From the IMG/VR virus record IMGVR_UViG_2513237361_000005: a DNA stretch of 29,840 nucleotides; one strand, given 5' to 3'. Made by a program: the position numbers and the translations under genes. Source of the stretch: a virus (lineage: Duplodnaviria > Heunggongvirae > Uroviricota > Caudoviricetes). Below are positions 5,802 through 29,840 of the stretch, in pieces. The notes beneath the pieces are model-generated. The model was not told the DNA's origin. It did not search any database and saw only the letters and a program-made list of their open reading frames with translations. How positions within the stretch are numbered: the stretch's first letter is position 1; the number at the start of each line of letters is the position of its first letter.

Positions 5802-6253
5802 TGGCAAAAATTCACGAGGTAAAGCTGCACGCAAAATATTTCGACCTTGTGCTGGAAGGAAAGAAACGCGCAGAGTTTCGGAAAAATGACCGTAATTATG
5901 AGCACGGGGACACGTTGATTTTGCATGAATGGGTGCAGGGTGTGTATACGGGGCGAAAGGTTGAAGCCCGGATAACAGATGTTACTGACCTGTCAGACTG
6001 GCTGGAAGATTATGTCTTGCTAAGTATTGAGCTGCTTAATACAGGCGCATATGAGATTGTGAACTGGAAAGAACTTAGTGAGCGTGGTCTGGTATTCAGA
6101 ATTAATCATGAAATTATGCATCAGCTCGGCCTTGCTGTTATGTATGAACCAGAGACGGGGATGTCTGGCGGGGCAATGGTTGCCACGGATGGAGCATGGA
6201 ACTATTCAGATGAACAGATGGAGCGTGCACAGCAAAACGGGTGGCTTGGATAA
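5801..6253 (+). CDS. DUF3850/ASCH-like (PUA-fold) protein with an unassigned C-terminal extension
   Basis: Start overlaps the gpA stop. N-terminal about 80 aa (MAKIHEVKLHAKYFDLVLEGKKRAEFRKNDRNYEHGDTLILHEW...) resembles the small DUF3850/ASCH-like proteins common in phages (recognition by eye, unverified). Confidence 0.5.
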   Translation: MAKIHEVKLHAKYFDLVLEGKKRAEFRKNDRNYEHGDTLILHEWVQGVYTGRKVEARITDVTDLSDWLEDYVLLSIELLNTGAYEIVNWKELSERGLVFRINHEIMHQLGLAVMYEPETGMSGGAMVATDGAWNYSDEQMERAQQNGWLG

Positions 6254-6459
6254 TGCACAGAATACCAGGCGAGATACCGCACCATAAAACTAAAAATATC
6301 AAGCTGATGGCTATTGTTCAGCGTTTACAGCGGATTATGGTCAACGAAAATATGACGCCCGATGAGCTGGTCGGGTGTGCCGAAATAGTCCGGGATAATT
6401 ACGGGCGGTTTAATCATATCGGTCAATCAAGAGTTACGCCACCACCACGCAGACGATAG
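6253..6459 (+). CDS. small hypothetical protein
   Basis: 68-aa ORF whose ATG overlaps the upstream TAA (TAATG); Pro/Arg-rich C-terminus; no recognisable motif. Confidence 0.4.
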   Translation: MHRIPGEIPHHKTKNIKLMAIVQRLQRIMVNENMTPDELVGCAEIVRDNYGRFNHIGQSRVTPPPRRR

Positions 6460-6682
6460 AGAACGCCGCCAGTCGTGAAACTTGTTTTCAGGGCTGGCGG
6501 GGTTGAACAACGAGCGAAGCGAGGCGTTAGTTGACAGACATATTTTTACTGCGTTGGTGCCGGTTTTTGACGGTTGAAAGGAGTTAGGTTGGAGAGCCAA
6601 CAACTTACAAATATTCAAAAGTAAGCATCCTGTTGCTAACATGAGGTCGATTTTTTATGTGGATGATGCAAAAAGGATAGCT

Positions 6683-7414
6683 ATGGATACTATAATCGCT
6701 TTTCTATCACTCGCTTTTTTCGTTGCTTTCTTCATCGGGTTAATCAAGCCATCACTGGTGCGAATGCCAAACCGCAAACGTGCAAGTGCGGTTTATCTCG
6801 GAGGAGGTTTTGTATTGAGCATAATTGGTTCAATACTCTATCCAACAGAAAAAAGCCAGCCAGTTGCTAAAACTGAAACATCAACCGTTGCAGAACACAA
6901 AGTCCAAAAAACATTCGAATATGGTGAAAAAACACTCAAGGAATATCGGAACGAGTCAAAGAAAACACGACACGATATTGTGAATAGTTACATTGATTTT
7001 AAGGAAGTTCCAGCCACCGCGTCAGATGCGTTTTATGCCTGCATGAGTGAGTATACATTTACCAAAGATGATGAGTTGAAACTCGGTGATGTTCTTGGGT
7101 GGTGCTTTAATGATTATGAAAATGACCCGAATTCACTAAACAATAAAATCAATCTTGATACATTTCAGAGTAATTTTAGTGGTTGGGATGGTTCTTATCG
7201 TCCATTGGAAAAACTAATTAAAGATAATATGAACGATGATTCATCTTATAAACATGTGTCAACGGTATATCATTTGGTTTTGAATAAAGACCCGTACGCT
7301 ATTGTGAAAACTACGTTTCGCGGTACTAATGCTTATGGTGGAGTGGTTAAGCAGACTATAGCTGCGCGCGTCGACATACGAACGGGAGAGGTTGTATCAA
7401 TATTAGATAATTGA
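6683..7414 (+). CDS. cargo membrane protein: two N-terminal transmembrane helices plus about 170-aa soluble domain of unknown function
   Basis: ATG 6683 with AGGA 5 nt upstream; hydrophobic helices TIIAFLSLAFFVAFFIGLI and AVYLGGGFVLSIIGSILY separated by a basic loop (RMPNRKRAS); coding sequence is strongly AT-rich compared with flanking phage genes. Confidence 0.6.
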   Translation: MDTIIAFLSLAFFVAFFIGLIKPSLVRMPNRKRASAVYLGGGFVLSIIGSILYPTEKSQPVAKTETSTVAEHKVQKTFEYGEKTLKEYRNESKKTRHDIVNSYIDFKEVPATASDAFYACMSEYTFTKDDELKLGDVLGWCFNDYENDPNSLNNKINLDTFQSNFSGWDGSYRPLEKLIKDNMNDDSSYKHVSTVYHLVLNKDPYAIVKTTFRGTNAYGGVVKQTIAARVDIRTGEVVSILDN

Positions 7415-7423
7415 TTATAAGCA

Positions 7424-7452
7424 ATGAGTGCTGAATGGTTTTCTGCACTCAT
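7424..7452 (+). other. intergenic hairpin between the two cargo genes (8-bp stem ATGAGTGC/GCACTCAT, 13-nt loop)
   Basis: Perfect inverted repeat read from the sequence; no following U-tract, so more likely a processing or attenuation element than a terminator. Confidence 0.3.
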
Positions 7453-7479
7453 ATAAATATGAATTTTTTAGGTGATGTA

Positions 7480-7992
7480 ATGGAATATCAACTGGATTTA
7501 CAAGAGAATGCTATTGATAGTTTTAATGAAGCTTTAGCAAAGTATGAGTTAGGGCAGAGAGGAGAATTGCGGCAATATAAATTTGCTATCTTGCATTTGT
7601 CACATTTTCTTGAGCTGGTGTTGAAGTTATATATTGTTACAGTAGATGAAAATTTACTGTATTCCGATTGCTATAAACAAATAGCTACAAGAGCAAAGCA
7701 AGAATCAATCAGTCTTTTAGACGCATATAATAAAATTATCGAGGATGGCGTTGATTTAGGAAGGTTCATTGAAGGGAAATCTAAGCCATATACGATAACC
7801 TTAGATCAGGCACTAAACTTTGCTAAGTGTGAGAAATGCGGCATAACTGGGGTTGATTTTGTAGATATTGATTTTTGTAATGATATAGCTTGGATAAAGA
7901 ATTTAAGAAATGATATTGAGCATTATCAATTCAGACTTACTCCTAAAGATGCGCGCTTGTGTATTGGACGCCTCGTCCGGGGGGGTAGCTGA
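7480..7992 (+). CDS. HEPN-like protein segment; probable N-terminal part of a single frameshifted gene spanning 7480-8416
   Basis: ATG 7480 with AGGTGA 5 nt upstream; helical-looking sequence with R-N-D-I-E-H (Rx4H) at 7906-7923, the HEPN signature; the frame terminates immediately after a G7 tract (7979-7985). Confidence 0.55.
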   Translation: MEYQLDLQENAIDSFNEALAKYELGQRGELRQYKFAILHLSHFLELVLKLYIVTVDENLLYSDCYKQIATRAKQESISLLDAYNKIIEDGVDLGRFIEGKSKPYTITLDQALNFAKCEKCGITGVDFVDIDFCNDIAWIKNLRNDIEHYQFRLTPKDARLCIGRLVRGGS

Positions 7993-8416
7993 GTTTATTG
8001 ATATCTTCGATCTTTTTAATCTTGAAGATGAAGTCGGTGCAGATAACTTACAGATATTTCAAACTTTAGCTGATGAATACTCTCATCGGCTCTCTGAAGC
8101 CAAGAAAGAAGTTGAAGAAAGAGAGGCTGAAGCTTTTTATGGGGTTAGGCATAAATTTTATGAATTGGTCGATTGGAAAGTTTATGAATGTCCTGAGTGT
8201 TCTAACGACACAATGATTCCCTCTGATGAGTCTTCTACGGGTTACAAATGCACTTTTTGTCAGAATGAAGATAGTGATGATATTGATGTTGCTTGCGATT
8301 GTTGTGGTGCGCAGGCTCCCAGCAGCGAAATGAGCATTTGGCCAATGGATGATGGTGATGTTGAGTATCGTTGTTACTACTGTTCAGGGCAGTATCAGGC
8401 AGATAAAGACTTTTAA
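7910..8416 (+). CDS. Cys-rich zinc-ribbon segment; probable C-terminal part of the same frameshifted gene
   Basis: Overlaps the upstream ORF by 83 nt in another frame with no convincing Shine-Dalgarno before ATG 7910; contains CPEC-x17-CTFC and CDCC-x23-CYYC Cys pairs (two zinc-ribbon-like modules); AT-rich. Confidence 0.5.
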   Translation: MILSIINSDLLLKMRACVLDASSGGVAEFIDIFDLFNLEDEVGADNLQIFQTLADEYSHRLSEAKKEVEEREAEAFYGVRHKFYELVDWKVYECPECSNDTMIPSDESSTGYKCTFCQNEDSDDIDVACDCCGAQAPSSEMSIWPMDDGDVEYRCYYCSGQYQADKDF

Positions 8417-8498
8417 TTTGCTGTTAACTGCTAGGGATGAAGTTAAAAATCATAGGACTCATCGTTAATTTATACTCAAATTTGTTTGATTTCTGCAT

Positions 8499-8522
8499 TG
8501 CATACAAAAGATGCATTTTTTT
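8499..8522 (+). terminator. weak candidate terminator for the cargo genes (TGCAT/ATGCA stem followed by T7)
   Basis: 5-bp stem with 7-nt loop followed by a run of seven T; the short stem makes this tentative. Confidence 0.25.
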
Positions 8523-8542
8523 GCATGCGTCAGACGTGCCTG

Positions 8543-8564
8543 CTCTGACAGTATATTGTCAGAG
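8543..8564. repeat. perfect inverted repeat CTCTGACA-gtatat-TGTCAGAG near cos
   Basis: 22-bp palindrome read directly; possible protein-binding site in the packaging region or a hairpin. Confidence 0.4.
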
Positions 8565-8622
8565 CTGGCGCGAATCTGGATTGTTCGTGCAACTGCATTA
8601 AAACCGCCCTATGAAGCGGGCG

Positions 8623-8641
8623 GGCGAGGCGGGGAAAGCAC
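8623..8641. other. cos site: GGCGAGGCGGGGAAAGCAC (P2-type 19-nt cohesive end)
   Basis: Matches the P2-family cohesive-end sequence as I recall it from memory; located about 170 bp beyond the Q stop, the expected position relative to Q. Confidence 0.55.
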
Positions 8642-8810: not shown

Positions 8811-9845
8811 TCAGCCGTTGTCAGTGTCCAGTGAGTAGTTTTTAAAGCGGATGACCTCCTGACCGAGCCAGCCGTTTATCTCGCGGATCCTGTCCTGTAA
8901 CGGGATAAGCTCATTGCGGACAAAGACCTTTGCCACTTTCTCAATATCACCCAGCGACCCGACGTTCTCCGGCTTGCCCCCCATCAACTGAAAGGGGATG
9001 CGGTGCGCGTCCAGCAGGTCAGCGGCGCTGGCTTTTTTGATATTAAAAAAATCGTCCTTTGTTGCCACTTCACTGAGGGGGATAATTTTAATGCCGTCGG
9101 CTTTCCCCTGTGGGGCATAGAGAAACAGATTTTTAAAGTTGTTGCGGCCTTTTGACTTAACCATGTTTTCGCGAAGCATTTCGATATCGTTGCGATCCTG
9201 CACGGCATCAGTGACGTACATGATATATCCGGCATGAGCACCGTTTTCGTAATACTTGCGGCGAAACAGCGTGGCCGACTCATTCAGCCAGGCAGAGTTA
9301 AGGGCGCTGAGATATTCCGGCAGGCCGTACAGCTCCTGATTAATATCCGGCTCCAGCAGGTGAAACACGGAGCCGGGCGCGAAGGCTGTCGGCTCGTTGA
9401 AGGACGGCACCCACCAGTAAACATCCTCTTCCACACCACGGCGGGTATATTTTGCCGGTGAGGTTTCCAGTCTGATGACCTTGCCGGTGGTGCTGTAACG
9501 CTTTTCCAGAAACGCATTACCGAACACCAGAAAATCCAGCACAAAGCGGCTGAAATCCTGCTGGGAAAGCCACGGATGCGGGATAAATGTCGAGGCCAGA
9601 ATATTACGTTTGACGTAAATCGGGGAGCTGTGATGCACGGCAGCACGCAGGCTTTTTGCCAGACCGGTAAAGCTGACCGGTGGCTCATACCATCTGCCGT
9701 TACTGATGCACTCGACGTAATCCAGAATGTCACGGCGATCGAGTACCGGCACCGGCTCACCAAAGGTGAATGCCTCCATTTTCGGGGCGCTGGCGGTCAT
9801 TGTTTTTGCCGCTGGTCGCGGTGTTTTCCCTTTTTTCTTGCTCAT
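8811..9845 (-). CDS. Q: portal protein gpQ
   Basis: 344 aa, the P2 Q length; adjacent to and co-oriented with the terminase ATPase gene; cos nearby. Confidence 0.9.
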   Translation of the reverse strand: MSKKKGKTPRPAAKTMTASAPKMEAFTFGEPVPVLDRRDILDYVECISNGRWYEPPVSFTGLAKSLRAAVHHSSPIYVKRNILASTFIPHPWLSQQDFSRFVLDFLVFGNAFLEKRYSTTGKVIRLETSPAKYTRRGVEEDVYWWVPSFNEPTAFAPGSVFHLLEPDINQELYGLPEYLSALNSAWLNESATLFRRKYYENGAHAGYIMYVTDAVQDRNDIEMLRENMVKSKGRNNFKNLFLYAPQGKADGIKIIPLSEVATKDDFFNIKKASAADLLDAHRIPFQLMGGKPENVGSLGDIEKVAKVFVRNELIPLQDRIREINGWLGQEVIRFKNYSLDTDNG

Positions 9846-11616
9846 CAGTAAAACTCCAGAATGGTGGATGTCAGCGGAGTGCTGATACCGGCGGTGAGTG
9901 GCTCATTTAACAGGGCGTGCATGGTCGCCCAGGCGAGGTCGGCGTGGCTGGCTTCCTCGCTGCGGCTGGCCTCATAGGTGGCGCTGCGTCCGCTGCTGGT
10001 CATGGTCTTGCGGATAGCCATAAACGAGCTGGTGATGTCGGTGGCGCTGACGTCATATTCCAGACAGCCACGGCGGATGACGTCTTTTGCCTTGAGCACC
10101 ATTGCGGTTTTCATTTCCGGCGTGTAGCGGATGTCGCGCGCGGCGGGATAGAACGAGCGCACGAGCTGGAACACGCCGACACCGAGGCCGGTGGCATCAA
10201 TACCGATGTATTCGACGTTGTATTTTTCGGTGAGTTTGCGGATGGATTCAGCCTGAGTGGCAAAGTCCATGCCTTTCCACTGGTGACGCTCAAGTATTCT
10301 GAATTTGCCACCGGCCACCACCGGCGGTGCCAGCACCACGCATCCGGCGCTGTCGCCACGGTGTGACGGGTCGTAACCAATCCATACCGGGCGGGAGCCG
10401 AACGGATTCGCGGCAAACGGCGCATAGTCTTCCCATTCTTCCAGCGTGTCGACCATGCAGCGTTGCAGCTCCTCGAACGGGAACACCGATGCCTTGTCGT
10501 CAACAAATTCACACATGAACAGGTTTTTAAAATCGTCGGCGCTGTTTTCGCGTTTGAGCTGCTCAATGTCGAACAACGTGCAGCCACCTTTCAGGGCGTC
10601 CTCAATGGTGACAATCTGCCGCCACTGGCCGTCCGCACAGAGAAGACCACCGGCAAGGGCGTTATGACTGACGTCGATTTCCACGCGTTCGGCGGCGCTG
10701 GCGCGTCCCCGGTTAAACAGTTCACCCGACCAGAACGAGTAGGCGTCGTGCGCCAGCGTGGACGGGGTGGAGAAATAGGTCGAGCGCAGGTGACTCTGTG
10801 AGGCCATACCTGATGCCACCTTACGCAGTACCTGAAAATTCGGGATCCAGAAAATCTCGTCGACGTACAGGTCGCCGTTATGGCTCTGCGCGGTGTTGGA
10901 GTTGGTGCCGAGAAAAATCAGTTTTGCGCCGTTATTGCCCAGGACAATCGGGTCACCGGTCAGGTCAACGTCAACCAGACGGGCAAAGGCGATGATGTAT
11001 TCACGGAACACATACGCCTGCGTTTTACTGGCCGACAGAAAAATCTGGTTATGACCGGTTTTCAGGGCACGCAGCAGCGCCTCGCGGGAAAAATAAAACG
11101 TTGCGCCAATCTGGCGGGATTTCAGGATATCGCGGATGCGGTGCTCAAGCCCGGCGCGATACCAGTGCAACTGATATTCGAAAGACTGCTCAAAGAAAAT
11201 CTGCTCCAGCTTTTCGATGGCCTCGTCACTGAAAAATTCTTTTTCGGTTTGCGCCGCCCGCCTTTGTTGCGGTTAGCGACGTTCGGATTAAGGTCTGCCT
11301 CGTTGCCGGTCTGGCTGTAGCGATTTACCCGTGCCAGTCGTTCAATCTGGCGTCCCAGCAGGTCAATTTCCTTGAAGTCACCGCCGGTTTTCTGCGGTTT
11401 GATGATGAGCTGGGTCAGCCGCGCTTCCAGGCTCATTTCGACACGGCTGATGGGGGCAACGCTGTCCCAGCCGTCGCGCTGTTTCCAGCTCTGCACCGTC
11501 GGGCGTTTCATCTGCAACATGGCGGCAATCTGCGGCACGGAAAATCCCTGCCAGTACAGCAGCGCCGCCTGACGACGCGGGTCGTGTAAAAGAGTGGTGT
11601 CTGTGGTGATGGTCAT
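9845..11616 (-). pseudogene. P: terminase ATPase (large) subunit gpP, interrupted by a 1-nt frameshift
   Basis: N-terminal 5' part (ATG 11616, GAGG Shine-Dalgarno) is in one frame, open to 11122; the remainder is in another frame, open from 11272 to 9845. Total span is 1772 nt (not divisible by 3); one extra nucleotide would give 590 aa, the P2 gpP length as I recall it. Confidence 0.8.
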
Positions 11617-11786
11617 GAATACCTCGCCGTGATGAATACACGGCAAGGCTACTGAGTCGCGCCCCGCGATTCGCTAAGGTGCTGTTGTGTCAGTGATAAG
11701 CCATCCGGGACTGATGGCGGAGGATGCGCATCGTCGGGAAACTGATGCCGACATGTGACTCCTCTAATCACTATTCAGGACTCCTG

Positions 11787-15338: not shown

Positions 15339-15620
15339 ATGACAGCAGAAGAAAAAAGCGTCCTGTCGCTTTTCATGATTGGGGTGCTGATTGTTGTCGG
15401 CAAGGTGCTTGCCGGTGGTGAACCCATCACCCCGCGTCTGTTTATCGGACGCATGTTGCTCGGTGGTTTTGTCTCGATGGTTGCCGGTGTTGTTCTGGTG
15501 CAGTTTCCTGACCTGTCACTGCCTGCGGTGTGCGGCATCGGCTCCATGCTGGGTATCGCCGGTTATCAGGTGATTGAGATTGCCATTCAGCGTCGTTTTA
15601 AGGGCAGGGGGAAACCGTAA
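15339..15620 (+). CDS. Y: holin gpY
   Basis: 93 aa with hydrophobic helices (LFMIGVLIVVGKVLAGG; LLGGFVSMVAGVVLVQF; VCGIGSMLGIAGY) and a charged C-terminus; directly precedes the endolysin. Confidence 0.8.
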   Translation: MTAEEKSVLSLFMIGVLIVVGKVLAGGEPITPRLFIGRMLLGGFVSMVAGVVLVQFPDLSLPAVCGIGSMLGIAGYQVIEIAIQRRFKGRGKP

Positions 15621-16117
15621 TGCCGGTAATTAACACGCACCAGAATATCGCTGCCTTTCTCGACATGCTGGCGGTGTCCGAAGGGACGGCGAATCATCCG
15701 CTGACGAAAAACCGTGGCTATGACGTGATAGTCACCGGACTGGACGGGACGCCGGAAATCTTCACCGACTACAGTGACCACCCGTTCGCACATGGCCGAC
15801 CGGCGAAGGTGTTTAACCGTCGCGGTGAAAAATCCACGGCCTCCGGGCGCTATCAGCAGCTTTACCTGTTCTGGCCGCATTACCGCAAACAGCTTGCCCT
15901 GCCGGATTTCAGTCCGTTGTCACAGGACAGACTCGCCATTCAGTTGATCCGCGAACGCGGTGCACTGGATGACATCCGGGCGGGACGCATTGAGCGCGCC
16001 ATTTCACGCTGTCGCAATATCTGGGCGTCCCTGCCGGGTGCCGGTTACGGTCAGCGTGAGCATTCACTGGAAAAACTGGTCACCGTCTGGCGTACCGCTG
16101 GCGGCGTACCGGCTTAA
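15620..16117 (+). CDS. K: endolysin gpK
   Basis: 165 aa, the P2 gpK length; sits between holin and LysA/LysB. Confidence 0.85.
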   Translation: MPVINTHQNIAAFLDMLAVSEGTANHPLTKNRGYDVIVTGLDGTPEIFTDYSDHPFAHGRPAKVFNRRGEKSTASGRYQQLYLFWPHYRKQLALPDFSPLSQDRLAIQLIRERGALDDIRAGRIERAISRCRNIWASLPGAGYGQREHSLEKLVTVWRTAGGVPA

Positions 16118-16131
16118 ACGGAGTAAACACC

Positions 16132-16557
16132 ATGAAGAAATTATCCCTTTCACTGATGCTGAACGTGTCGCTGGCGCTGATGCTGGCACTGTCCCTGATT
16201 TACCCGCAGAGCGTGGCCGTCAATTTTGTCGCCACCTGGGCGATTCTGGCGACGGTTATCTGTGTGGTTGCCGGTGGTGTCGGCGTGTATGCCACTGAGT
16301 ATGTGCTGGAACGCTACGGGCGGGAGCTGCCGCCGGAATCGCTGGCCGTGAAGATTGTCACGTCGCTGTTTTTGCAGCCGGTGCCGTGGCGCAGGCGGGC
16401 AGCGGCTCTGGTGGTGATGGTGGCGACGTTTATCTTGCTGGTCGCTGCCGGGTGGATTTTTACCGCGCTGATTTATCTTGTGGCGTCGCTGTTTTTCCGG
16501 CTGATACGTAAAGCCTGTCGTCAGCGTCTTGAGGGACGGGAACCATGTCAAAGCTGA
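16132..16557 (+). CDS. lysA: LysA (membrane lysis accessory protein)
   Basis: 141 aa, mostly hydrophobic with multiple predicted TM helices; position after K. Confidence 0.75.
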   Translation: MKKLSLSLMLNVSLALMLALSLIYPQSVAVNFVATWAILATVICVVAGGVGVYATEYVLERYGRELPPESLAVKIVTSLFLQPVPWRRRAAALVVMVATFILLVAAGWIFTALIYLVASLFFRLIRKACRQRLEGREPCQS

Positions 16558-16970
16558 TGATTGTGCTGGTCGTGTTGTTATCGCTGGCGGTGGCCGGTCT
16601 GTTTCTGGTGAAACACAAAAATGCCAGCCTGCGCGCCTCGCTGGACAGGGCGAACAACGTCGCCAGTGGGCAGCAGACGACCATCACCATGCTGAAAAAT
16701 CAGCTTCATGTTGCGCTCACCAGGGCAGAAAAAAACGAGCTGGCGCAGGTGGCACTGCGTCAGGAACTGGAGAACGCCGCGAAGCGTGAAGCACAGCGCG
16801 AGAAAACCATCACGAGGTTACTTAATGAAAACGAGGATTTTCGCCGCTGGTATGGCGCTGACCTGCCTGATGCTGTGCGCCGGTTGCACCAGCGTCCGGC
16901 CTGCACCGACGCCAGTGATTGTCGCCAACGCCTGCCCGAAAGTGAGTCTTTGCCCGATGCCGGGCAGTGA
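16545..16970 (+). CDS. lysB: LysB (Rz-like inner-membrane spanin component)
   Basis: 141 aa with an N-terminal TM helix (LMIVLVVLLSLAVAGLFLV) and a coiled-coil-like periplasmic domain. Confidence 0.75.
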   Translation: MSKLMIVLVVLLSLAVAGLFLVKHKNASLRASLDRANNVASGQQTTITMLKNQLHVALTRAEKNELAQVALRQELENAAKREAQREKTITRLLNENEDFRRWYGADLPDAVRRLHQRPACTDASDCRQRLPESESLPDAGQ

Positions 16971-17115
16971 CCCGGAGACGAACGGCGATTTAAGTGCCGA
17001 TATCCGGCAGCTTGAGAACGCGCTGGCACGTTGTGCCAGCCAGGTAAAAATGATTAAACACTGTCAGGACGAAAACGATGCTCAAACCCGACAGCCTGCG
17101 CAGGGCGCTGACTGA
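16825..17115 (+). CDS. lysC: LysC (Rz1-like outer-membrane lipoprotein spanin), out of frame within and beyond lysB
   Basis: ATG at 16825 inside lysB in another frame; signal peptide with lipobox-like LCAGC and a Pro-rich mature region (RPAPTPV, CPMPGSDPE); extends past the lysB stop into R. Confidence 0.6.
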   Translation: MKTRIFAAGMALTCLMLCAGCTSVRPAPTPVIVANACPKVSLCPMPGSDPETNGDLSADIRQLENALARCASQVKMIKHCQDENDAQTRQPAQGAD

Positions 17116-17545
17116 TGCCGTCACGGTGCTGAAAACTAACCCCGATATGCTGCGGATATTCGTGGATAACGGGAGTATTGCCTCCACACTGGCGGCGTCG
17201 TTGTCATTCGAAAAGCGTTACACGCTCAATGTCATTGTGACCGACTTTACCGGTGATTTTGACCTGCTCATCGTGCCGGTGCTGGCGTGGCTGCGGGAAA
17301 ATCAGCCCGACATCATGACCACCGACGCAGGCCAGAAAAAGGGCTTCACGTTTTATGCAGACATCAACAATGACAGCAGCTTTGATATCAGCATCAGCCT
17401 GATGCTGACCGAGCGCACGCTGGTCAGTGAGGTGGACGGCGCACTGCATGTGAAGAATATTCCGGAACCCCCGCCGCCGGAGCCGGTCACCCGCCCGATG
17501 GAGCTGTATATCAATGGCGAACTGGTGAGCAAGTGGGATGAATGA
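17078..17545 (+). CDS. R: tail completion protein gpR
   Basis: 155 aa (P2 gpR length); synteny. Confidence 0.85.
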   Translation: MLKPDSLRRALTDAVTVLKTNPDMLRIFVDNGSIASTLAASLSFEKRYTLNVIVTDFTGDFDLLIVPVLAWLRENQPDIMTTDAGQKKGFTFYADINNDSSFDISISLMLTERTLVSEVDGALHVKNIPEPPPPEPVTRPMELYINGELVSKWDE

Positions 17546-17990
17546 GTTTAAGCGTTTTGAAGACCGGCTGACCGGACTTATTGAGTCGCTGTCACCGTCA
17601 GGGCGTCGGCGGCTGAGTGCAGAGCTGGCGAAGCGTCTGCGGCAGAGTCAGCAGCGTCGGGTGATGGCACAGAAAGCCCCGGACGGCACACCCTACGCGC
17701 CACGCCAGCAGCAGAGCGCCAGAAAAAAGACCGGTCGCGTTAAGCGAAAAATGTTTGCGAAACTTATCACCAGTCGTTTTTTGCATATCCGCGCCAGCCC
17801 GGAACAGGCATCAATGGAATTTTACGGCGGGAAGTCGCCGAAAATCGCCAGTGTGCATCAGTTCGGTCTGTCGGAAGAAACCCGGAAAGACGGTAAGAAA
17901 ATTGATTATCCGGCGCGTCCTCTGCTCGGCTTTACCGGTGAGGATGTGCAGATGATTGAAGAGATTATCCTGGCTCATCTCGACCGTTAG
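17538..17990 (+). CDS. S: tail completion protein gpS
   Basis: 150 aa (P2 gpS length); start overlaps the R stop. Confidence 0.85.
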   Translation: MNEFKRFEDRLTGLIESLSPSGRRRLSAELAKRLRQSQQRRVMAQKAPDGTPYAPRQQQSARKKTGRVKRKMFAKLITSRFLHIRASPEQASMEFYGGKSPKIASVHQFGLSEETRKDGKKIDYPARPLLGFTGEDVQMIEEIILAHLDR

Positions 17991-18022
17991 TTGTGCCATT
18001 CCCGACACCTCATCGTCACATT

Positions 18023-18044
18023 GCCGCCGGTATGACCCGGCGGC
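18023..18044 (+). terminator. hairpin after S (GCCGCCGG-uaugac-CCGGCGGC): candidate terminator/attenuator before the V operon
   Basis: Perfect 8-bp GC-rich stem with 6-nt loop in the S-V intergenic region; downstream tract only moderately U-rich. Confidence 0.4.
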
Positions 18045-18056
18045 ATCCTTCCCGTT

Positions 18057-18692
18057 ATGAACACTCTCGCAAATATTCAGGAACTCGCGCGCGCACTGCG
18101 CAACATGATCCGCTCCGGCATTATCGTCGAAACCGACCTTAATGCCGGTCGCTGCCGTGTGCAGACCGGCGGCATGTGCACCGACTGGCTTCAGTGGCTG
18201 ACCCATCGCGCCGGACGTTCGCGCACATGGTGGGCACCTTCCGTGGGGGAACAGGTGCTGATTCTGGCCGTGGGCGGTGAACTCGACACGGCGTTCGTTC
18301 TGCCGGGGATTTATTCCGGCGATAACCCCGCACCGTCTGCGTCGGCGGATGCCCTGCATATCCGTTTCCCTGACGGGGCGGTGATTGAGTATGAACCTGA
18401 AACCAGTGTACTCACGGTAAGCGGAATTAAAACGGCCAGCGTGACGGCTTCTGATTCTGTTACTGCCACGGTGCCGGTGGTCACGGTGAAAGCATCAACC
18501 CGCGTCACCCTGGACACACCGGAAGTGGTCTGCACTAACAAGCTGACTACCGGCACGCTGGAAGTGCAGAAGGGCGGGACGATGCGCGGCAACATTGAAC
18601 ACACCGGCGGTGAACTCTCATCAAACGGTAAGGTACTGCATACCCATAAACACCCCGGCGACAGCGGCGGCACAACCGGGAGTCCTCTATGA
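18057..18692 (+). CDS. V: baseplate spike/hub protein gpV
   Basis: 211 aa (P2 gpV length); first gene of the baseplate operon. Confidence 0.85.
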   Translation: MNTLANIQELARALRNMIRSGIIVETDLNAGRCRVQTGGMCTDWLQWLTHRAGRSRTWWAPSVGEQVLILAVGGELDTAFVLPGIYSGDNPAPSASADALHIRFPDGAVIEYEPETSVLTVSGIKTASVTASDSVTATVPVVTVKASTRVTLDTPEVVCTNKLTTGTLEVQKGGTMRGNIEHTGGELSSNGKVLHTHKHPGDSGGTTGSPL

Positions 18693-19036
18693 CAGCGCGT
18701 TATCTCGGAATGAATCGCAGTGATGGCCTGACTGTCACTGACCTTGAACATATCAGCCAGAGTATCGGCGATATCCTGCGCACACCGGTCGGCTCACGGG
18801 TGATGCGTCGTGATTACGGCTCGTTGCTGGCGTCAATGATTGACCAGCCGCAGACTCCGGCGCTTGAGTTGCAGATTAAGGTCGCCTGTTACATGGCAGT
18901 GCTGAAATGGGAACCCCGCGTCACCCTGTCATCCGTCACCACTGAGCGCAGTTTTGACGGGCGAATGACGGTCACGTTAACCGGCCAGCACAACGACACC
19001 GGCCAGCCACTTTCGTTAACCATCCCTGTGAGTTGA
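18689..19036 (+). CDS. W: baseplate wedge protein gpW (gp25-like)
   Basis: 115 aa; overlaps the V stop; synteny. Confidence 0.85.
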   Translation: MTARYLGMNRSDGLTVTDLEHISQSIGDILRTPVGSRVMRRDYGSLLASMIDQPQTPALELQIKVACYMAVLKWEPRVTLSSVTTERSFDGRMTVTLTGQHNDTGQPLSLTIPVS

Positions 19037-19040
19037 AACC

Positions 19041-19949
19041 ATGCCGATTATCGACCTGAACCAGCTACCCGCACCGGATGTGGTCGAGGAGCTGGACTTT
19101 GAAACCATTCTTGCCGAACGCAAGGCGACACTGATTTCCCTTTACCCGGAAGACCAGCAGGAGGCGGTCGCCCGTACCCTGACACTGGAATCCGAGCCTC
19201 TCGTCAAACTGCTGGAGGAAAATGCTTATCGCGAGCTTATCTGGCGTCAGCGTGTGAATGAGGCCGCACGGGCGGTGATGCTGGCCTGTGCCGCCGGTAA
19301 TGACCTTGATGTGATTGGTGCCAATTACAACACCACGCGCCTGATTATCACCCCGGCAGATGATTCGACCATCCCGCCGACACCGGCAGTGATGGAGTCT
19401 GACACCGATTATCGTCTGCGTATTCAGCAGGCGTTTGAGGGCTTAAGCGTCGCCGGGTCGGTGGGAGCCTATCAGTATCATGGTCGCAGTGCCGACGGGC
19501 GTATCGCGGATATCTCTGTCACCAGTCCGTCTCCGGCCTGCGTCACCATCTCCGTGCTGTCACGTGAAAATAACGGTGTCGCATCCGAAGACCTGCTGGC
19601 CGTGGTGCGTAACGCCCTGAATGGCGAGGACGTCAGACCGGTGGCCGACCGCGTGACCGTGCAGTCTGCCGCCATCGTTGAATACCAGATAAACGCCACG
19701 CTTTACCTTTACCCTGGCCCCGAAAGCGAACCCATTCGCGCTGCCGCCGTGAAAAAACTGGAAGCGTATATCACGGCACAGCACCGGCTGGGGCGCGACA
19801 TCCGTCTGTCTGCCATTTATGCCGCTTTGCATGTGGAAGGCGTGCAGCGTGTCGAACTGACTGCACCGCTGGCCGACATCGTGCTCAACAGTACGCAGGC
19901 GTCTTTCTGTACCGAATACCGCGTCGTGACCGGAGGCTCGGATGAGTGA
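19041..19949 (+). CDS. J: baseplate protein gpJ
   Basis: 302 aa (P2 gpJ length); synteny. Confidence 0.85.
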   Translation: MPIIDLNQLPAPDVVEELDFETILAERKATLISLYPEDQQEAVARTLTLESEPLVKLLEENAYRELIWRQRVNEAARAVMLACAAGNDLDVIGANYNTTRLIITPADDSTIPPTPAVMESDTDYRLRIQQAFEGLSVAGSVGAYQYHGRSADGRIADISVTSPSPACVTISVLSRENNGVASEDLLAVVRNALNGEDVRPVADRVTVQSAAIVEYQINATLYLYPGPESEPIRAAAVKKLEAYITAQHRLGRDIRLSAIYAALHVEGVQRVELTAPLADIVLNSTQASFCTEYRVVTGGSDE

Positions 19950-20472
19950 TTCGCGCCTGCTGCCGACCGGCTCATCACCGCTTGAAATTGCTGCCGCAAA
20001 AGCCTGTGCGGAAATTGAAAAAACGCCGGTCAGTATTCGTGAGCTGTGGAACCCGGACACCTGTCCGGCAAATCTGCTGCCGTGGCTGGCGTGGGCGTTT
20101 TCGGTCGACAGGTGGGATGAAAAGTGGCCGGAAGCGACAAAACGCGCCGTTATTCGCGATGCCTATTTCATTCATTGTCATAAAGGCACTGTCGGCGCAA
20201 TCCGACGCGTGGTGGAGCCGCTCGGCTATCTCATCAACGTGACGGAGTGGTGGGAAAACAATGACCCGCCCGGCACTTTCCGGCTCGATATTGGTGTACT
20301 GGAAAGCGGCATCACAGAGGAAATGTATCTGGAAATGGAACGGCTGATTGCCGATGCCAAACCCGCAAGTCGCCACCTTATCGGCCTGAACATTATCCAG
20401 GACATTCCCGGCTATCTGTTCGCCGGTGGTGTGGCTTATGACGGCGATGTAATTACGGTTTACCCCGGATAA
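19942..20472 (+). CDS. I: baseplate/tail protein gpI
   Basis: 176 aa; overlaps the J end; synteny. Confidence 0.85.
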   Translation: MSDSRLLPTGSSPLEIAAAKACAEIEKTPVSIRELWNPDTCPANLLPWLAWAFSVDRWDEKWPEATKRAVIRDAYFIHCHKGTVGAIRRVVEPLGYLINVTEWWENNDPPGTFRLDIGVLESGITEEMYLEMERLIADAKPASRHLIGLNIIQDIPGYLFAGGVAYDGDVITVYPG

Positions 20473-20482
20473 GTGAGGAATA

Positions 20483-22573
20483 ATGAGCACAAAATTCAGA
20501 ACCGTTATCACCACTGCCGGTGCAGCAAAGCTGGCAGCGGCAACCGCACCGGGAGGGCGGAAGGTCAACATTACCACGATGGCCGTCGGGGATGGCGGTG
20601 GTAAATTGCCTGTCCCGGATGCCGGACAGACCGGGCTTATTCATGAAGTCTGGCGACATGCGCTGAACAAAATCAGCCAGGACAAACGAAACAGTAATTA
20701 TATTATTGCAGAGCTGGTTATTCCGCCGGAGGTGGGCGGTTTCTGGATGCGTGAGCTTGGCCTGTACGATGATGCGGGAACGTTAATTGCTGTGGCGAAC
20801 ATGGCCGAAAGTTATAAGCCCGCTCTTGCCGAAGGCTCAGGGCGTTCGCAGACCTGCCGCATGGTCATCATCGTCAGCAGTGTGGCCTCAGTGGATCTGA
20901 CCATCGACACCACAACGGTGATGGCGACGCAGGATTACGTTGATGACAAAATTGCAGAGCACGAACAGTCACGACGCCACCCGGACGCCTCACTGACTGC
21001 AAAAGGTTTTACTCAGTTAAGCAGCGCGACCAATAGTGAATCTGAAACGCTGGCTGCAACGCCGAAAGCGGTTAAGGCAGCGTATGACCTTGCTAACGGA
21101 AAATATACCGCTCAGGACGCCAGCACGGGGCGAAAAGGTCTTGTTCAGCTAAGTAGTGCCATCAACAGCGAATCAGAGACGCTCGCAGCAACGCCAAAGG
21201 CAGTTAAGACAGCATATGACCTTGCTAATGGCAAATACACCGCACAGGACGCCACCACAGCGCGAAAAGGTCTTGTCCAGCTCAGTAGCGCCACCAACAG
21301 CGATTCTGAAACGCTTGCGGCAACGCCAAAGGCGGTTAAGACAGCGTATGACCTTGCTAACGGGAAATACACTGCACAGGATGCCACCACGGCGCGGAAA
21401 GGTCTTGTTCAGCTCAGTAGTGCCATCAACAGCGATTCTGAAACGCTGGCTGCAACGCCAAAAGCGGTGAAGTCTGCCTATGATAATGCTGAAAAACGTC
21501 TTCAGAAAGATAAGAACGGTGCGGATATTCCGGGAAAGGATACTTTCACGAAAAATATTGGTGCCTGTCGTGCTTATAGCGGCGCTTTGAGCACCGAAGG
21601 TGGAGACTGGACTACAGCCCAGTTTATTGAGTGGCTTGATTCGGTAGGTGCTTTTAATCACCCATACTGGATGTGTAAAGGCTCCTGGTCATATGCCAAT
21701 AATAAACTTATTACCGATACTGGCTGTGGCAATATTCATCTTGCTGGCGCTGTTATTGAGGTAATGGGCATAAAGTCTGCAATGACTATTCGTATTACCA
21801 CACCAACAACATCAAGCGGTGGGGGCGCTACAAGCGCGCAATTTACTTATATTAACCACGGGGACAACTATGCTCCTGGCTGGCGGCGTGACTGGAACCG
21901 TTACGGCGATTCTATGTCTGGAACTATTAATCAGGATAGTGGAAGCCAGAATGCCTATATGTCTACGGCCTTATGTTCCGGCACCAGAGGCGGCAAAAAA
22001 TATCTCAGAAAGTTTCGTGGTGGAGAAGGAGACACTATCTGGCATGAAACAGTACAGGGCGGGGTAATTCGCTGGGCGACAGGTAATACTGATGCTCAGG
22101 AAGAATTATCACTCAGCTCTGCTTATGGTCTTCGTTCAAGAGGTGAAATTACATCGCTCAGTGCTAATGGTCTGCGCATTGCTTATGGCAATTATGGATT
22201 CTTTATCAGGAATGATGGCGGCAGCACATATTTAATGCTGACGGCCTCTGGCGATAAATTTGGAACATGGAACGGTTTAAGACCGCTGACTATCAATAAC
22301 GCCAATGGCGGAGTGTCAATGGGGCATGGCCTGAGTGTTACTGGACGTGTTAACCCATCAGATTACGGAAATTTTGATTCCCGCTATGTGAAAGATGTTC
22401 GCCTGGGTACGCGTGTTGTTCAGACCATGCAAAAAGGCGTGATGTATGAGAAATCAGGCCATGTAATTACAGGGCTTGGCATTGTCGGCGAAGTTGATGG
22501 CGATGATCCGGCAGTATTCAGACCAATACAAAAATACATTAATGGCACATGGTATAACGTCGCACAGGTGTAA
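20483..22573 (+). CDS. H: tail fiber protein gpH
   Basis: 696 aa; conserved N-terminal baseplate-attachment part, internal tandem repeats, and an AT-richer C-terminal receptor-binding part. Confidence 0.85.
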   Translation: MSTKFRTVITTAGAAKLAAATAPGGRKVNITTMAVGDGGGKLPVPDAGQTGLIHEVWRHALNKISQDKRNSNYIIAELVIPPEVGGFWMRELGLYDDAGTLIAVANMAESYKPALAEGSGRSQTCRMVIIVSSVASVDLTIDTTTVMATQDYVDDKIAEHEQSRRHPDASLTAKGFTQLSSATNSESETLAATPKAVKAAYDLANGKYTAQDASTGRKGLVQLSSAINSESETLAATPKAVKTAYDLANGKYTAQDATTARKGLVQLSSATNSDSETLAATPKAVKTAYDLANGKYTAQDATTARKGLVQLSSAINSDSETLAATPKAVKSAYDNAEKRLQKDKNGADIPGKDTFTKNIGACRAYSGALSTEGGDWTTAQFIEWLDSVGAFNHPYWMCKGSWSYANNKLITDTGCGNIHLAGAVIEVMGIKSAMTIRITTPTTSSGGGATSAQFTYINHGDNYAPGWRRDWNRYGDSMSGTINQDSGSQNAYMSTALCSGTRGGKKYLRKFRGGEGDTIWHETVQGGVIRWATGNTDAQEELSLSSAYGLRSRGEITSLSANGLRIAYGNYGFFIRNDGGSTYLMLTASGDKFGTWNGLRPLTINNANGGVSMGHGLSVTGRVNPSDYGNFDSRYVKDVRLGTRVVQTMQKGVMYEKSGHVITGLGIVGEVDGDDPAVFRPIQKYINGTWYNVAQV
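21002..21484 (+). repeat. in-frame tandem repeats inside H: about 3.7 copies of a 132-bp (44-codon) unit
   Basis: Unit starts at 21002, 21134, 21266 and 21398, each encoding KG(F/L)(T/V)QLSSA(T/I)NS(E/D)SETLAATPKAVK.AYDLANGKYTAQDA..(G/A)R. Confidence 0.75.
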
Positions 22574-22576
22574 TTT

Positions 22577-23104
22577 ATGCAGCATTTAAAAAATATTACT
22601 GCGGGTAATCCCAAAACTGTTGCCCAATATCAACTGACAAAAAATTTTGATGTTATCTGGTTATGGTCTGAAGACGGAAAAAACTGGTATGAGGAAGTAA
22701 GTAATTTTCAGGAAGACACGATAAAGATTGTTTACGACGAGAATAATATAATTGTCGGTATCACCAGAGATGCTTCAACGCTTAACCCTGAAGGTTTTAG
22801 CGTTGCCGAGGTTCCTGATATTACCGCCAACCGACGTGCTGATGACTCAGGTAAATGGATGTTTAAGGATGGTGCCGTGATTAAGCGGATTTATACGGCA
22901 GACGAACAGCAGCAACTGGCAGAATCACAAAAGGCAACTTTACTTTCCGAAGCTGAATCCGTGATTTTGCCGCTGGAGCGCGCTGTCAGGCTGAATATGG
23001 CAACAGATGAGGAGCGCCGCCGACTGGAAGCATGGGAACGCTACAGCGTTCTGGTCAGTCGTGTGGATCCTGCAAATCCTGAATGGCCGGAAATGCCGCA
23101 ATAA
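22577..23104 (+). CDS. G: tail fiber assembly chaperone gpG
   Basis: 175 aa (P2 gpG length), immediately downstream of H; AT-rich like the H 3' end. Confidence 0.8.
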
Positions 23105-23111
23105 ACACAAG

Positions 23112-23139
23112 GCGGGCTTATTGTCCGCTTTTTCTTTAT
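23112..23139 (+). terminator. rho-independent terminator after G
   Basis: GCGGGC-uuauu-GUCCGC stem (one G-U pair) followed by UUUUUCUUU, 8 nt after the G stop. Confidence 0.6.
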
Positions 23140-23237
23140 CGGTGGTTGTGCTGTCGATTAGCCAACCGGGACAAATAGCCTGATATCTCCGGCACAACTG
23201 AAAATACCACTCACCCATTAACCACGGAGTTAAACGG

Positions 23238-24428
23238 ATGAGTGACTATCATCACGGCGTGCAGGTGCTGGAGATTAACGACGGCACCCGCGTCATTTCC
23301 ACCGTATCCACGGCCATTGTCGGCATGGTCTGCACAGCCAGCGATGCGGATGCGGAAACCTTCCCCCTCAATAAACCGGTGCTGATTACCAATGTGCAGA
23401 GCGCAATTGCAAAGGCCGGTAAAAAAGGCACGCTGGCGGCATCGTTGCAGGCCATCGCCGACCAGTCAAAACCGGTCACCGTTGTCGTGCGTGTGGAAGA
23501 CGGCACCGGCGACGACGAGGAAACGAAACTCGCGCAGACCGTTTCCAATATCATCGGCACCACCGACGAAAACGGTCAGTACACCGGACTGAAAGCCCTG
23601 CTGGCGGCGGAGTCGGTAACCGGTGTTAAACCGCGTATTCTCGGCGTGCCGGGACTGGACACCAAAGAGGTGGCTGTTGCACTGGCATCAGTCTGTCAGA
23701 AGTTGCGCGCTTTCGGGTATATCAGCGCATGGGGCTGTAAAACCATTTCCGAGGTGAAAGCCTACCGCCAGAATTTCAGCCAGCGTGAGCTAATGGTCAT
23801 CTGGCCGGATTTCCTCGCATGGGATACGGTCAGCAGCACCACCGCCACCGCGTATGCCACCGCCCGTGCGCTGGGTCTGCGCGCTAAAATCGACCAGGAG
23901 CAGGGCTGGCATAAAACGCTGTCCAACGTCGGGGTAAACGGTGTTACCGGCATCAGTGCGTCCGTATTCTGGGATTTGCAGGAGTCCGGCACCGATGCTG
24001 ACCTGTTGAACGAGTCAGGCGTCACAACGCTGATTCGCCGTGACGGTTTCCGCTTCTGGGGTAACCGTACCTGCTCTGATGACCCGCTGTTCCTCTTTGA
24101 AAACTACACCCGCACCGCGCAGGTGCTGGCCGACACGATGGCTGAGGCGCACATGTGGGCGGTGGACAAGCCCATCACCGCAACGCTGATTCGCGACATC
24201 GTTGACGGCATCAATGCCAAATTCCGTGAGCTGAAAACAAACGGCTATATCGTGGATGCGACCTGCTGGTTCAGCGAAGAATCCAACGATGCGGAAACCC
24301 TCAAGGCCGGAAAACTGTATATCGACTACGACTATACCCCGGTGCCTCCTCTCGAAAACCTGACCCTGCGCCAGCGTATCACCGATAAATACCTGGCAAA
24401 TCTGGTCACCTCGGTTAACAGCAATTAA
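23238..24428 (+). CDS. FI: contractile tail sheath protein gpFI
   Basis: 396 aa (P2 FI length); followed by the tube gene. Confidence 0.9.
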   Translation: MSDYHHGVQVLEINDGTRVISTVSTAIVGMVCTASDADAETFPLNKPVLITNVQSAIAKAGKKGTLAASLQAIADQSKPVTVVVRVEDGTGDDEETKLAQTVSNIIGTTDENGQYTGLKALLAAESVTGVKPRILGVPGLDTKEVAVALASVCQKLRAFGYISAWGCKTISEVKAYRQNFSQRELMVIWPDFLAWDTVSSTTATAYATARALGLRAKIDQEQGWHKTLSNVGVNGVTGISASVFWDLQESGTDADLLNESGVTTLIRRDGFRFWGNRTCSDDPLFLFENYTRTAQVLADTMAEAHMWAVDKPITATLIRDIVDGINAKFRELKTNGYIVDATCWFSEESNDAETLKAGKLYIDYDYTPVPPLENLTLRQRITDKYLANLVTSVNSN

Positions 24429-24440
24429 GGAGCCTGACCG

Positions 24441-24959
24441 ATGGCAATGCCGCGCAAACTCAAATACATGAATGTCTTTCTGAACGGCTACAGCTATCAG
24501 GGCGTTGCAAATTCCGTCACGCTGCCAAAACTGACCCGTAAGCTCGAAAATTATCGCGGTGCGGGAATGAACGGCAGCGCACCGGTAGACCTCGGCCTTG
24601 ATGATGATGCGCTGTCAATGGAGTGGTCGCTCGGTGGATTCCCGGATTCGGTTATCTGGGAGCTTTACGCTGCAACCAGTGCTGATGCCGTACCGATTCG
24701 TTTTGCTGGTTCTTACCAGCGCGACGATACCGGCGAAACGGTGGCCGTCGAAGTGGTCATGCGTGGGCGTCAGAAAGAAGTCGACACCGGAGAGGGTAAA
24801 CAGGGAGAGGATACCGAATCGAAACTCCCGGTGATTTGTACTTATTTCAAGTTGACGATGGACGGTAAGGAGCTGGTCGAAATCGACACCATCAACATGA
24901 TTGAGAAGGTGAACGGCGTCGACCGGCTGGAGCAACACCGCCGTAATATCGGCCTGTGA
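24441..24959 (+). CDS. FII: tail tube protein gpFII
   Basis: 172 aa (P2 FII length); synteny. Confidence 0.9.
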   Translation: MAMPRKLKYMNVFLNGYSYQGVANSVTLPKLTRKLENYRGAGMNGSAPVDLGLDDDALSMEWSLGGFPDSVIWELYAATSADAVPIRFAGSYQRDDTGETVAVEVVMRGRQKEVDTGEGKQGEDTESKLPVICTYFKLTMDGKELVEIDTINMIEKVNGVDRLEQHRRNIGL

Positions 24960-25015
24960 TTTTCATACGGTCAGCCAGGCTGACCGGTTAACCCTGATTC
25001 AGAAGTGAGAAAACC

Positions 25016-25291
25016 ATGAACAAAGAAAATGTCATTACCCTGGAAAATCCGGTCAAACGTGGTGAGCAGGTTATCGAACAGGTCACGCTGATGAAACCCA
25101 ATGCCGGGACGCTGCGCGGTGTCAGTCTGGCTGCGGTTGCAAACTCCGAAGTCGATGCACTGATTAAGGTGCTGCCGCGCATGACGGCACCGATGCTGAC
25201 CGAGCAGGAAGTCGCCGCGCTGGAACTGCCTGACCTTGTGGCGCTGGCCGGTAAGGTGGTCGGTTTTTTGTCGCCGAACTCGGTGCAGTGA
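25016..25291 (+). CDS. E: tail assembly chaperone gpE
   Basis: 91 aa; contains the slippery heptamer near its 3' end; directly upstream of the tape measure gene. Confidence 0.8.
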   Translation: MNKENVITLENPVKRGEQVIEQVTLMKPNAGTLRGVSLAAVANSEVDALIKVLPRMTAPMLTEQEVAALELPDLVALAGKVVGFLSPNSVQ

Positions 25292-25443
25292 CGTTTCCGA
25301 AAAATCTCTCGGTCGATGACCTGATGGCGGATGTGGCAGTGATATTTCACTGGCCGCCATCAGAACTGTATCCCATGAGCCTGACCGAACTCATCACATG
25401 GCGCGAAAAGGCGCTCCGGCGAAGCGGAAACACGAATGAGTAA
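25016..25443 (+). CDS. E+E' fusion product made by -1 programmed ribosomal frameshift
   Basis: The -1 frame is open from 25270 to a TAA at 25441-25443, ending just inside the T start (ATG 25436). Confidence 0.6.
25264..25270 (+). other. slippery heptamer T-TTT-TTG for the E/E' -1 frameshift
   Basis: GGTTTTTTG read directly (T6 at 25264-25269, G at 25270); conserved position of the tail chaperone frameshift in P2-like and lambda-like (G/GT) phages. Confidence 0.65.
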
Positions 25444-27883: not shown

Positions 27884-27897
27884 GGAGGTGACGAAAA

Positions 27898-28377
27898 ATG
27901 ATGCTCGCGTTAGGTATGTTTGTTTTTATGCGCCAGACGCTGCCACACCAGACCATGCAGCGTGAATCAGATTATCGCTGGCCGTCAAATTCCCGTATCG
28001 GTAAACGGGATGCCTACCAGTTTCTCGGTGTTGGCGAGGAAAACATGACGCTTGCCGGTGTGCTTTATCCCGAACTGACCGGCGGCAAGCTGACGATGAC
28101 CACGCTCAGGCTGATGGCAGAGGAAGGCCGGGCGTGGCCGTTGCTGGATGGCACCGGCATGATTTACGGCATGTATGTCATCAGCAAGGTGAGTGAAACA
28201 GGGAGTATTTTCTTTGCAGACGGCACACCCAGGAAAATTGATTTTACGCTGTCGCTCACCCGCGTTGATGAATCACTGGCCGCGCTTTATGGCGATATCG
28301 GTAAACAGGCGGAGTCGCTCATAGGTAAGGCCGGCAGTATGGCGACCAGATTCACAGGTATGGCGGGGGCGGGATAA
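27898..28377 (+). CDS. U: tail protein gpU
   Basis: 159 aa (P2 gpU length); synteny. Confidence 0.85.
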   Translation: MMLALGMFVFMRQTLPHQTMQRESDYRWPSNSRIGKRDAYQFLGVGEENMTLAGVLYPELTGGKLTMTTLRLMAEEGRAWPLLDGTGMIYGMYVISKVSETGSIFFADGTPRKIDFTLSLTRVDESLAALYGDIGKQAESLIGKAGSMATRFTGMAGAG

Positions 28378-29540: not shown

Positions 29541-29558
29541 TGTATTTTATTTATCTGT

Positions 29559-29587
29559 TTGTTTTGTAAGGATAAATTAACTAAAAT
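29559..29587 (+). promoter_or_regulatory. candidate ogr promoter: -35 TTGTTT (29559-29564), 17-bp spacer, -10 TAAAAT (29582-29587)
   Basis: Hexamers read from the AT-rich D-ogr intergenic region; the -35 match is partial. Confidence 0.3.
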
Positions 29588-29621
29588 GGCACCATCAACA
29601 AAACCGGAAGAGGTGCTCGCG

Positions 29622-29840
29622 ATGTTTCATTGTCCTTTATGCCAGCATGCTGCACATGCGCGTACAAGTCGCTATATCACTGACACGACAAAAGAGCGTT
29701 ATCACCAGTGCCAGAACGTGAATTGCAGCGCCACGTTCATCACTTATGAGTCGGTACAGCGATACATCGTGAAGCCGGGAGAAGTCCACGCCGTAAGGCC
29801 GCACCCGTTGCCGTCAGGGCAGCAAATTATGTGGATGTGA
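29622..29840 (+). CDS. ogr: late-gene transcriptional activator Ogr (Cys4 zinc finger)
   Basis: Starting at MFHCPLCQHAAHARTS gives 72 aa with CxxC-x22-CxxxxC (CPLC...CQNVNC), the P2 Ogr length and zinc-finger pattern; the listed ORF start at 29559 is an upstream in-frame extension. Confidence 0.85.
   Translation: MFHCPLCQHAAHARTSRYITDTTKERYHQCQNVNCSATFITYESVQRYIVKPGEVHAVRPHPLPSGQQIMWM

Follow-up and report, generated by a model that had tools for sequence, protein, structure and literature searches.

We infer, from comparison with other copies of the same prophage, that the five-T run in the terminase gene P of this P2-like prophage arose as a homopolymer undercall that the 2011 draft assembly of Escherichia sp. 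TW09308 retained, and we assign this reading a probability of about 0.75. Our comparisons established the position of the indel, its uniqueness among copies of the prophage, and its recurrence in error-prone assemblies. An undercall is favoured because the differences between two clonal assemblies are confined to indels, because the run is an error hot spot, and because six T are the ancestral and clonal state. The real prophage would then produce a normal 590-aa terminase large subunit, with HTH, ATPase, and nuclease in one chain, and, if the short run is an undercall, it would package DNA. An earlier note on this DNA had attributed the frameshift either to domestication or to a homopolymer assembly error; of the two, the comparative evidence speaks for the error, and domestication is not supported.

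The prophage and the broken frame of gene P

The window, that is, the whole stretch of 29,840 nt that was analysed, is one complete P2-like prophage, bounded by two stop codons, that of the integrase gene at position 1 and that of ogr at 29840. When all 42 P2 proteins annotated in AF063097 were used as tblastn queries against the window, the P2 gene order was found to be kept: Q, P, O, N, M, L, X, Y, K, lysA/B/C, R, S, V, W, J, I, H, G, FI, FII, E, T, U, D, ogr, B, and A, together with small early ORFs. As in P2, the Q-P operon is divergent from O-N-M-L. The P2 homologues are full-length and in a single frame each, except P and the accessory gene orf81, and a cargo gene not found in P2 is also broken. 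The earlier impression that the other structural genes are intact is therefore borne out, the exceptions being this accessory gene and the non-P2 cargo gene.

An exact-protein look-up of the truncated P product led to AEME01000001.1 (GCA_000208565.2, Escherichia sp. TW09308), the record of a 2011 draft assembly, which matches the window at 100% identity over 20,495 bp. TW09308 belongs to clade V (E. marmotae) and was isolated from a freshwater beach in Michigan (PMC3850674; PMC6650469; supplement of PMC11546641).

Several features set the prophage apart from P2. The window lacks the P2 accessory genes old, tin, orf30, and fun(Z) (sites 6022-8623, 17992-18057, and 23104-23238), and the old/tin position holds an unrelated cargo cluster consisting of a DUF3850/ASCH protein, a 68-aa ORF, a 243-aa ORF, and a split 311/326-aa ORF. 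In the immunity region (int, C, cox), identity to P2 amounts to no more than 43-52%. In gene H (window 21133-21499), residues 168-251 of P2 gpH are matched twice, at 20483-21235 and 21248-21499, which suggests an internal duplicated segment in the 696-aa fibre. The same integrase occurs with other cargo genes (SocA_Panacea) in a 31.5 kb metagenome contig (ENA ERZ27294565 k141_10601), where the int gene adjoins ogr, the junction expected of an excised or circular phage genome.

The features of gene P and its surroundings are as follows.

9845..11616, minus strand: gene P (P2 gpP, terminase large subunit) as recorded, 1772 nt against 1773 nt in the intact gene
11122..11616, minus strand: N-terminal ORF of 164 aa, made up of 128 native gpP residues (11233-11616) and 36 out-of-frame codons
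11232..11236, minus strand: run of five T (five A on the plus strand), the site of the missing base, from alignments and a homopolymer census
9845..11231, minus strand: rest of gpP (native residues 129-590), shifted to the -1 frame with respect to the start codon
~11410-11583, minus strand: Terminase_5 HTH domain (Pfam PF06056, E 4.4e-28, residues 12-69 of the 164-aa ORF)
~10460-11128, minus strand: Terminase_6N, ATPase (Pfam PF03237, E 5e-60, second frame)
~9905-10381, minus strand: Terminase_6C, nuclease (Pfam PF17289, E 2.3e-47, second frame)
11099..11122, minus strand: KSRQIGAT, putative Walker-A-like motif of the ATPase, read from the translation
11639..11710, no strand assigned: P late-promoter region shared with the divergent O operon, P2 annotation transferred via blastn

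At the nucleotide level, window P is 98.3-98.9% identical to the P genes of P2 and hundreds of prophages. The matches, which include P2, Wphi, L-413C, and E. coli prophages, span 1803 nt against 1802 nt in the window, and exactly one gap is found in the alignments: the window has GAATTTTTCAG at this point, and the others have GAATTTTTTCAG. Alignment with P2, E. coli XJ55, and approximately 100 other P genes places the missing base in GAATTTTT(T)CAG. P2 and almost all relatives carry six T (T6) at gene nucleotides 381-386, where the window has five (T5), and the frame breaks after codon 128. According to the homopolymer census, this T6 run is the only homopolymer of at least six in intact P. 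Alignment to intact P genes of P2-like phages, which the earlier note had named as the way to locate the indel, thus pinpointed it as one T missing from T6. The note had considered a GC-rich or homopolymer stretch around 11226-11272 the most plausible place for the shift; the site lies inside that bracket and is an A/T homopolymer, not a GC-rich one.

The tblastn search with P2 gpP matched residues 1-128 in one frame at 11616-11233 with 100% identity, and residues 123-590 in the other frame at 11251-9848 with 98.7% identity. The stop codon of the 164-aa ORF lies at 11122-11124. The second frame is open from 11272 to a stop codon at 9845-9847, overlaps the first by 150 nt, and is represented by gene callers as a 441-aa ORF starting at TTG 11170. 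The ORF list and tblastn thus reproduced the two frames that had been described, one running from ATG 11616 to 11122 and one from 11272 to 9845, and the span of 1772 nt was likewise correctly given as one short of a multiple of three, the intact gene having 1773 nt.

The frame break is located in a basic linker between Terminase_5 and Terminase_6N, leaving both domains whole. The motif KSRQIGAT, which we take to be Walker-A-like by analogy with SRQLGKT of T4 gp17, lies 3' of the shift and is therefore not translated from the P start codon. When one T is put back, a 590-aa protein results that differs from P2 gpP at 2 residues. All three domains lie in one frame of approximately 590 codons in the sister copies of the prophage but not in the TW09308 record. 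Frame continuity aside, the gene fits the P2 gpP terminase family in every tested respect. With the P2 coordinates transferred, the predicted P transcription start is at approximately 11639 and an Ogr-type activator site at approximately 11680-11710. The late-promoter region appears undisturbed, the blastn alignment being ungapped across this stretch.

A clonal assembly and sister copies of the prophage

Sister copies of the prophage were found through look-ups of the 88-aa Orf81, the 243-aa cargo protein, the tape measure protein, and the 326-aa integrase. The closest is in GCA_023275955.1, E. marmotae by its source label, which shows 0 substitutions against the TW09308 record from window position -9999 to 15414 (25.4 kb including 10 kb of chromosome). 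The supplement of PMC11546641 gives an ANI value of 98.8% for TW09308, which we read as its identity to other E. marmotae genomes. At such divergence, the lack of any substitution in 10 kb of chromosome indicates that the two assemblies represent the same clone, and by this measure they are near-certainly clonal. GCA_023275955.1 may be a clonal sister isolate rather than a re-sequencing of the same stock. Over the 25.4 kb, the two assemblies differ by four 1-nt indels and nothing else.

P: T5 in TW09308, T6 in GCA_023275955.1; broken in TW09308
Cargo gene (7979-7985): G7 in TW09308, G6 in GCA_023275955.1; broken in TW09308
cpxP (non-homopolymer site): 1 nt missing in TW09308, base present in GCA_023275955.1; broken in TW09308
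kdgT: C6 in TW09308, C5 in GCA_023275955.1; broken in GCA_023275955.1

GCA_023275955.1 encodes an intact 590-aa P. Indels in both assemblies, with 0 substitutions, are to be expected if one clone was assembled twice imperfectly; they do not match the spectrum of natural mutations.

At kdgT, no gene is called in GCA_023275955.1 (locus L166, corresponding to L165 position 16718), which has its own homopolymer indel there. In cpxP, the TW09308 record has lost a base in the non-homopolymer context GCGAAG-GGAGAC, and 86 aa are called against 166 aa. This lesion lies approximately 450 bp to the left of window position 1 (L153 position 865; L165 position 11434), and the base is present in every other assembly examined, including the clone with 0 substitutions.

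The further copies also have T6 and G6. In the compared parts, GCA_020775175.1 (L149 and L146) and Logan SRR16763804 (L144) each differ from the window by 2 substitutions, and GCA_043594345.1 (L156 and L148) differs by 24. All 12 of the other assemblies that cover the run, fetched via the cargo gene, integrase, or orf81 product, have T6; among the fetched loci, T5 occurs only in those cut from the TW09308 record. In the four loci compared in full (L144, L149, L154, and L156), P equals window P with one T restored. The 441-aa C-terminal product was not found in any other assembly by protein look-up.

Window 15436-29840 is 100% identical over 14.4 kb to the copies in GCA_020775175.1 (L146) and GCA_043594345.1 (L148). 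The adjacent chromosome of these hosts, on the fieF-pfkA-tpiA side, is only 90.5% identical to that of TW09308, and the insertion site between cpxP and fieF is common to all of them. This pattern implies a very recent cross-species transfer of active phage, and the prophage is evidently active now or was until very recently. Identity over 14.4 kb in hosts whose flanks are 90.5% identical argues against domestication. T5 is not common to any host lineage, being found in the TW09308 record and not in the 12 other assemblies, and a search of the prophage for further decay (deletions, IS elements, several broken essential genes) yielded only the split cargo gene. As far as these comparisons indicate, domestication is not supported.

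Two other tracts in the prophage differ in length between copies or from P2. The G7 tract at 7979-7985 splits the cargo gene into 185-aa and 155-aa pieces (ORFs 7435-7992 and 7910-8416). Fifteen other assemblies have G6 and a whole cargo gene, of 311 aa or 326 aa according to which start is called; the intact protein matches the PADLOC candidate defence family PDC-S64 (E 2e-17). G7 recurs at 100% identity in the Logan contig SRR29904084 (3266 bp), and the 185-aa product occurs also in SRR29904083, so that the tract may be real, and possibly phase-variable, rather than an error. In orf81 (2727-2993), the window has CCC at 2975-2977 where P2 has CC, and the DUF5405 protein Orf81 has 88 aa against 100. 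An assembly error at this second site was ruled out, as all sister copies are identical there. The 88-aa product is also called in independent Logan contigs, and the CCC form is therefore a natural allele.

These observations also furnish counterpoints to an undercall in P. Apart from the P and cargo tracts, the window's other runs of at least six match the lengths in the sister copies, so that the TW09308 record is not grossly error-prone. The reproduction of G7 in an independent Logan contig indicates that at least one record-specific indel may be real. Moreover, T6 runs are also genuine slippage hot spots in vivo.

Recurrence of the T5 run and its possible meanings

T5 is rare elsewhere. 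Three of the 1351 matching RefSeq complete E. coli records carry it (exact 81-mer), as does one IMG/VR contig, compared with at least 120 contigs there that have one more base in the run; the full-length P genes analysed in IMG/VR all have T6. A 31-mer scan of GTDB species representatives found none with T5. Full-length P genes with T6 form a single ORF in 97 of 97 cases. The three RefSeq cases are E. coli FDAARGOS_448, CE0032f, and ETEC1703, each annotated as "frameshifted" by PGAP; in FDAARGOS_448, RefSeq marks both P and the capsid gene in this way. Intact homologues with the same two-frame arrangement, which the earlier note had regarded as evidence against a lesion, were found in 0 of 64 isolated-phage records, none of which has T5, and the RefSeq cases are the ones flagged by PGAP.

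The nearest T6 relative lies at 0 substitutions for the window, 1 for CE0032f, 4 for FDAARGOS_448, 12 for ETEC1703, and 18 for the IMG/VR contig. Each of these five T5 genes is closer to a T6 relative than to any T5 relative, which indicates independent origins. In a large assembly collection, the exact 164-aa product is encoded on 47 contigs. When 14 T5 loci were compared with the 9-kb P2 late region, most had 1 to 10 further single-base deletions, nearly all within runs of A, T, C, or G. T5 is the sole indel across the 9 kb in the window's record and in the locus L133, the sole indel within the 2.4 kb examined in CE0032f, and the sole single-base homopolymer change in ETEC1703. Such a pattern is the signature of homopolymer contraction errors, and the T6 run of P is thus a recurrent artefact site.

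It is established from P2 genetics that P is needed for DNA packaging and head filling. The main alternative, which we consider unlikely, is that T5 is a real, very recent, strain-private slipped-strand deletion in the stock that was sequenced. Translation from ATG 11616 would then give the 128-residue HTH part and 36 nonsense residues, with neither ATPase nor nuclease and hence no packaging, a consequence that the earlier note had correctly drawn. The lysogen would build proheads and tails and lyse, its DNA would be neither cut nor packaged, and no infectious particles would be released; such a packaging-null prophage would be at the first step of decay. The frameshift in the TW09308 record is indeed unambiguous, T6 is the longest homopolymer in P and a natural slippage site, and the G7 allele of the same record is confirmed by an independent dataset; T5 also stands alone as an indel in L133 and CE0032f over the regions given above. 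However, T5 is not an inherited state, since T6 is present in the clonal sister and in all other copies of the prophage, and the indel-only differences from the clone are unlike natural mutation. In addition, the 441-aa C-terminal product is on record for one assembly alone, and the essential genes of the prophage are otherwise undecayed. If real, T5 would simply inactivate an essential head gene, as ordinary null mutations do, and would bring no new biology.

A functional role for the two frames, by programmed -1 ribosomal frameshifting or as a reversible phase-variable switch of terminase expression, has very little probability. Inside the 150-nt overlap, the native frame would be restored by a -1 slip at the U run or at the G AAA AAG that precedes it, and a -1 slip of tRNA-Phe on AAU UUU UCA would, as read from the sequence, give exactly the wild-type N-F-F-S-D-E. 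When compared with the slippery heptamer X XXY YYZ, U UUU UCA would allow re-pairing of the P-site tRNA only, and G AAA AAG is near-canonical. T5 has also arisen repeatedly in independent backgrounds. In contrast, P is one open frame in over 99% of homologues and in all the isolated phage records found, so that nothing has been selected to promote shifting. Folding of 111 nt around and downstream of the run gave an MFE of -27 kcal/mol, against a mean of -26.4 for shuffled sequence (z = -0.17), and thus no stimulatory structure downstream. Programmed frameshifting was rejected on these two grounds, the two-frame arrangement not being conserved in homologues. A tract of 5-6 nt is, moreover, shorter than typical contingency tracts, and most recurrences of T5 accompany other assembly errors. 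A real T5 allele could be slightly leaky through a -1 slip, judging from sequence alone. Improbable, too, is a broader proposal in which T6 would be a mutational hot spot through which P2-like prophages in nature alternate reversibly between being packaging-competent and packaging-null, with the T5 state leaky at a low level and the TW09308 prophage "locked-in", keeping its lysis, tail, and defence genes.

We give almost no credence to a P that is truly split into an HTH fragment and a separately initiated ATPase-nuclease, acting as two working polypeptides. The break in the basic linker between Terminase_5 and Terminase_6N would suit this arrangement, as it leaves both domains whole. However, the downstream frame offers no start codon before TTG 11170, which is not preceded by a Shine-Dalgarno sequence and would drop native residues 129-149, and no P homologue is organised as a split gene. 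A functional split gene was rejected because the downstream frame contains no start codon bearing a ribosome-binding site.

A homopolymer undercall in the draft assembly thus remains the reading that we prefer, and its significance is one of caution: when a homopolymer in an old draft differs by a single base, a phage that is active and was recently transferred can be mistaken for a domesticated, packaging-defective one. Since the T6 run of gpP is a recurrent site of false or true frameshifts in public assemblies, automated calls of a "defective prophage" that rest on it need to be verified in the reads. What was found here amounts to an artefact or to an ordinary null allele. Frameshifted terminases are routine in prophage records, and in three RefSeq genomes the identical change already carries a PGAP flag.

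Comparison with known systems

The P2 genome has a two-frame gene of its own, the E/E' pair, in which a programmed -1 frameshift produces the tail assembly chaperone. E/E' is conserved in all relatives, whereas the two-frame arrangement of P is absent from relatives and has no stimulatory element. In the window, the E/E' pair is normal (approximately 25016-25443), with a full-length E and a 51-aa GpE-family ORF overlapping its end.

The lesion in P resembles the homopolymer errors of pyrosequencing and long-read assemblies, in that a 1-base change in a run of 6 breaks a conserved gene and is accompanied by other single-base indels without substitutions relative to the clonal assembly. It differs from them in that the companion indel in cpxP lies outside any homopolymer. 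The pseudogenes of FDAARGOS_448, CE0032f, and ETEC1703 show the T6-to-T5 change at the identical position. They belong to other prophage backgrounds, with 17-28 substitutions in P and other cargo genes, and are independent events; unlike the window, FDAARGOS_448 has homopolymer deletions also in the capsid gene and elsewhere.

The closest known counterpart is gpP of P2 itself (AAD03269.1, a DNA-dependent ATPase), whose gene is 98.3% identical to window P at the nucleotide level over its length. The two share the same position and the same domain order, Terminase_5, Terminase_6N, and Terminase_6C, and at gene positions 381-386 P2 has six T where the window has five.
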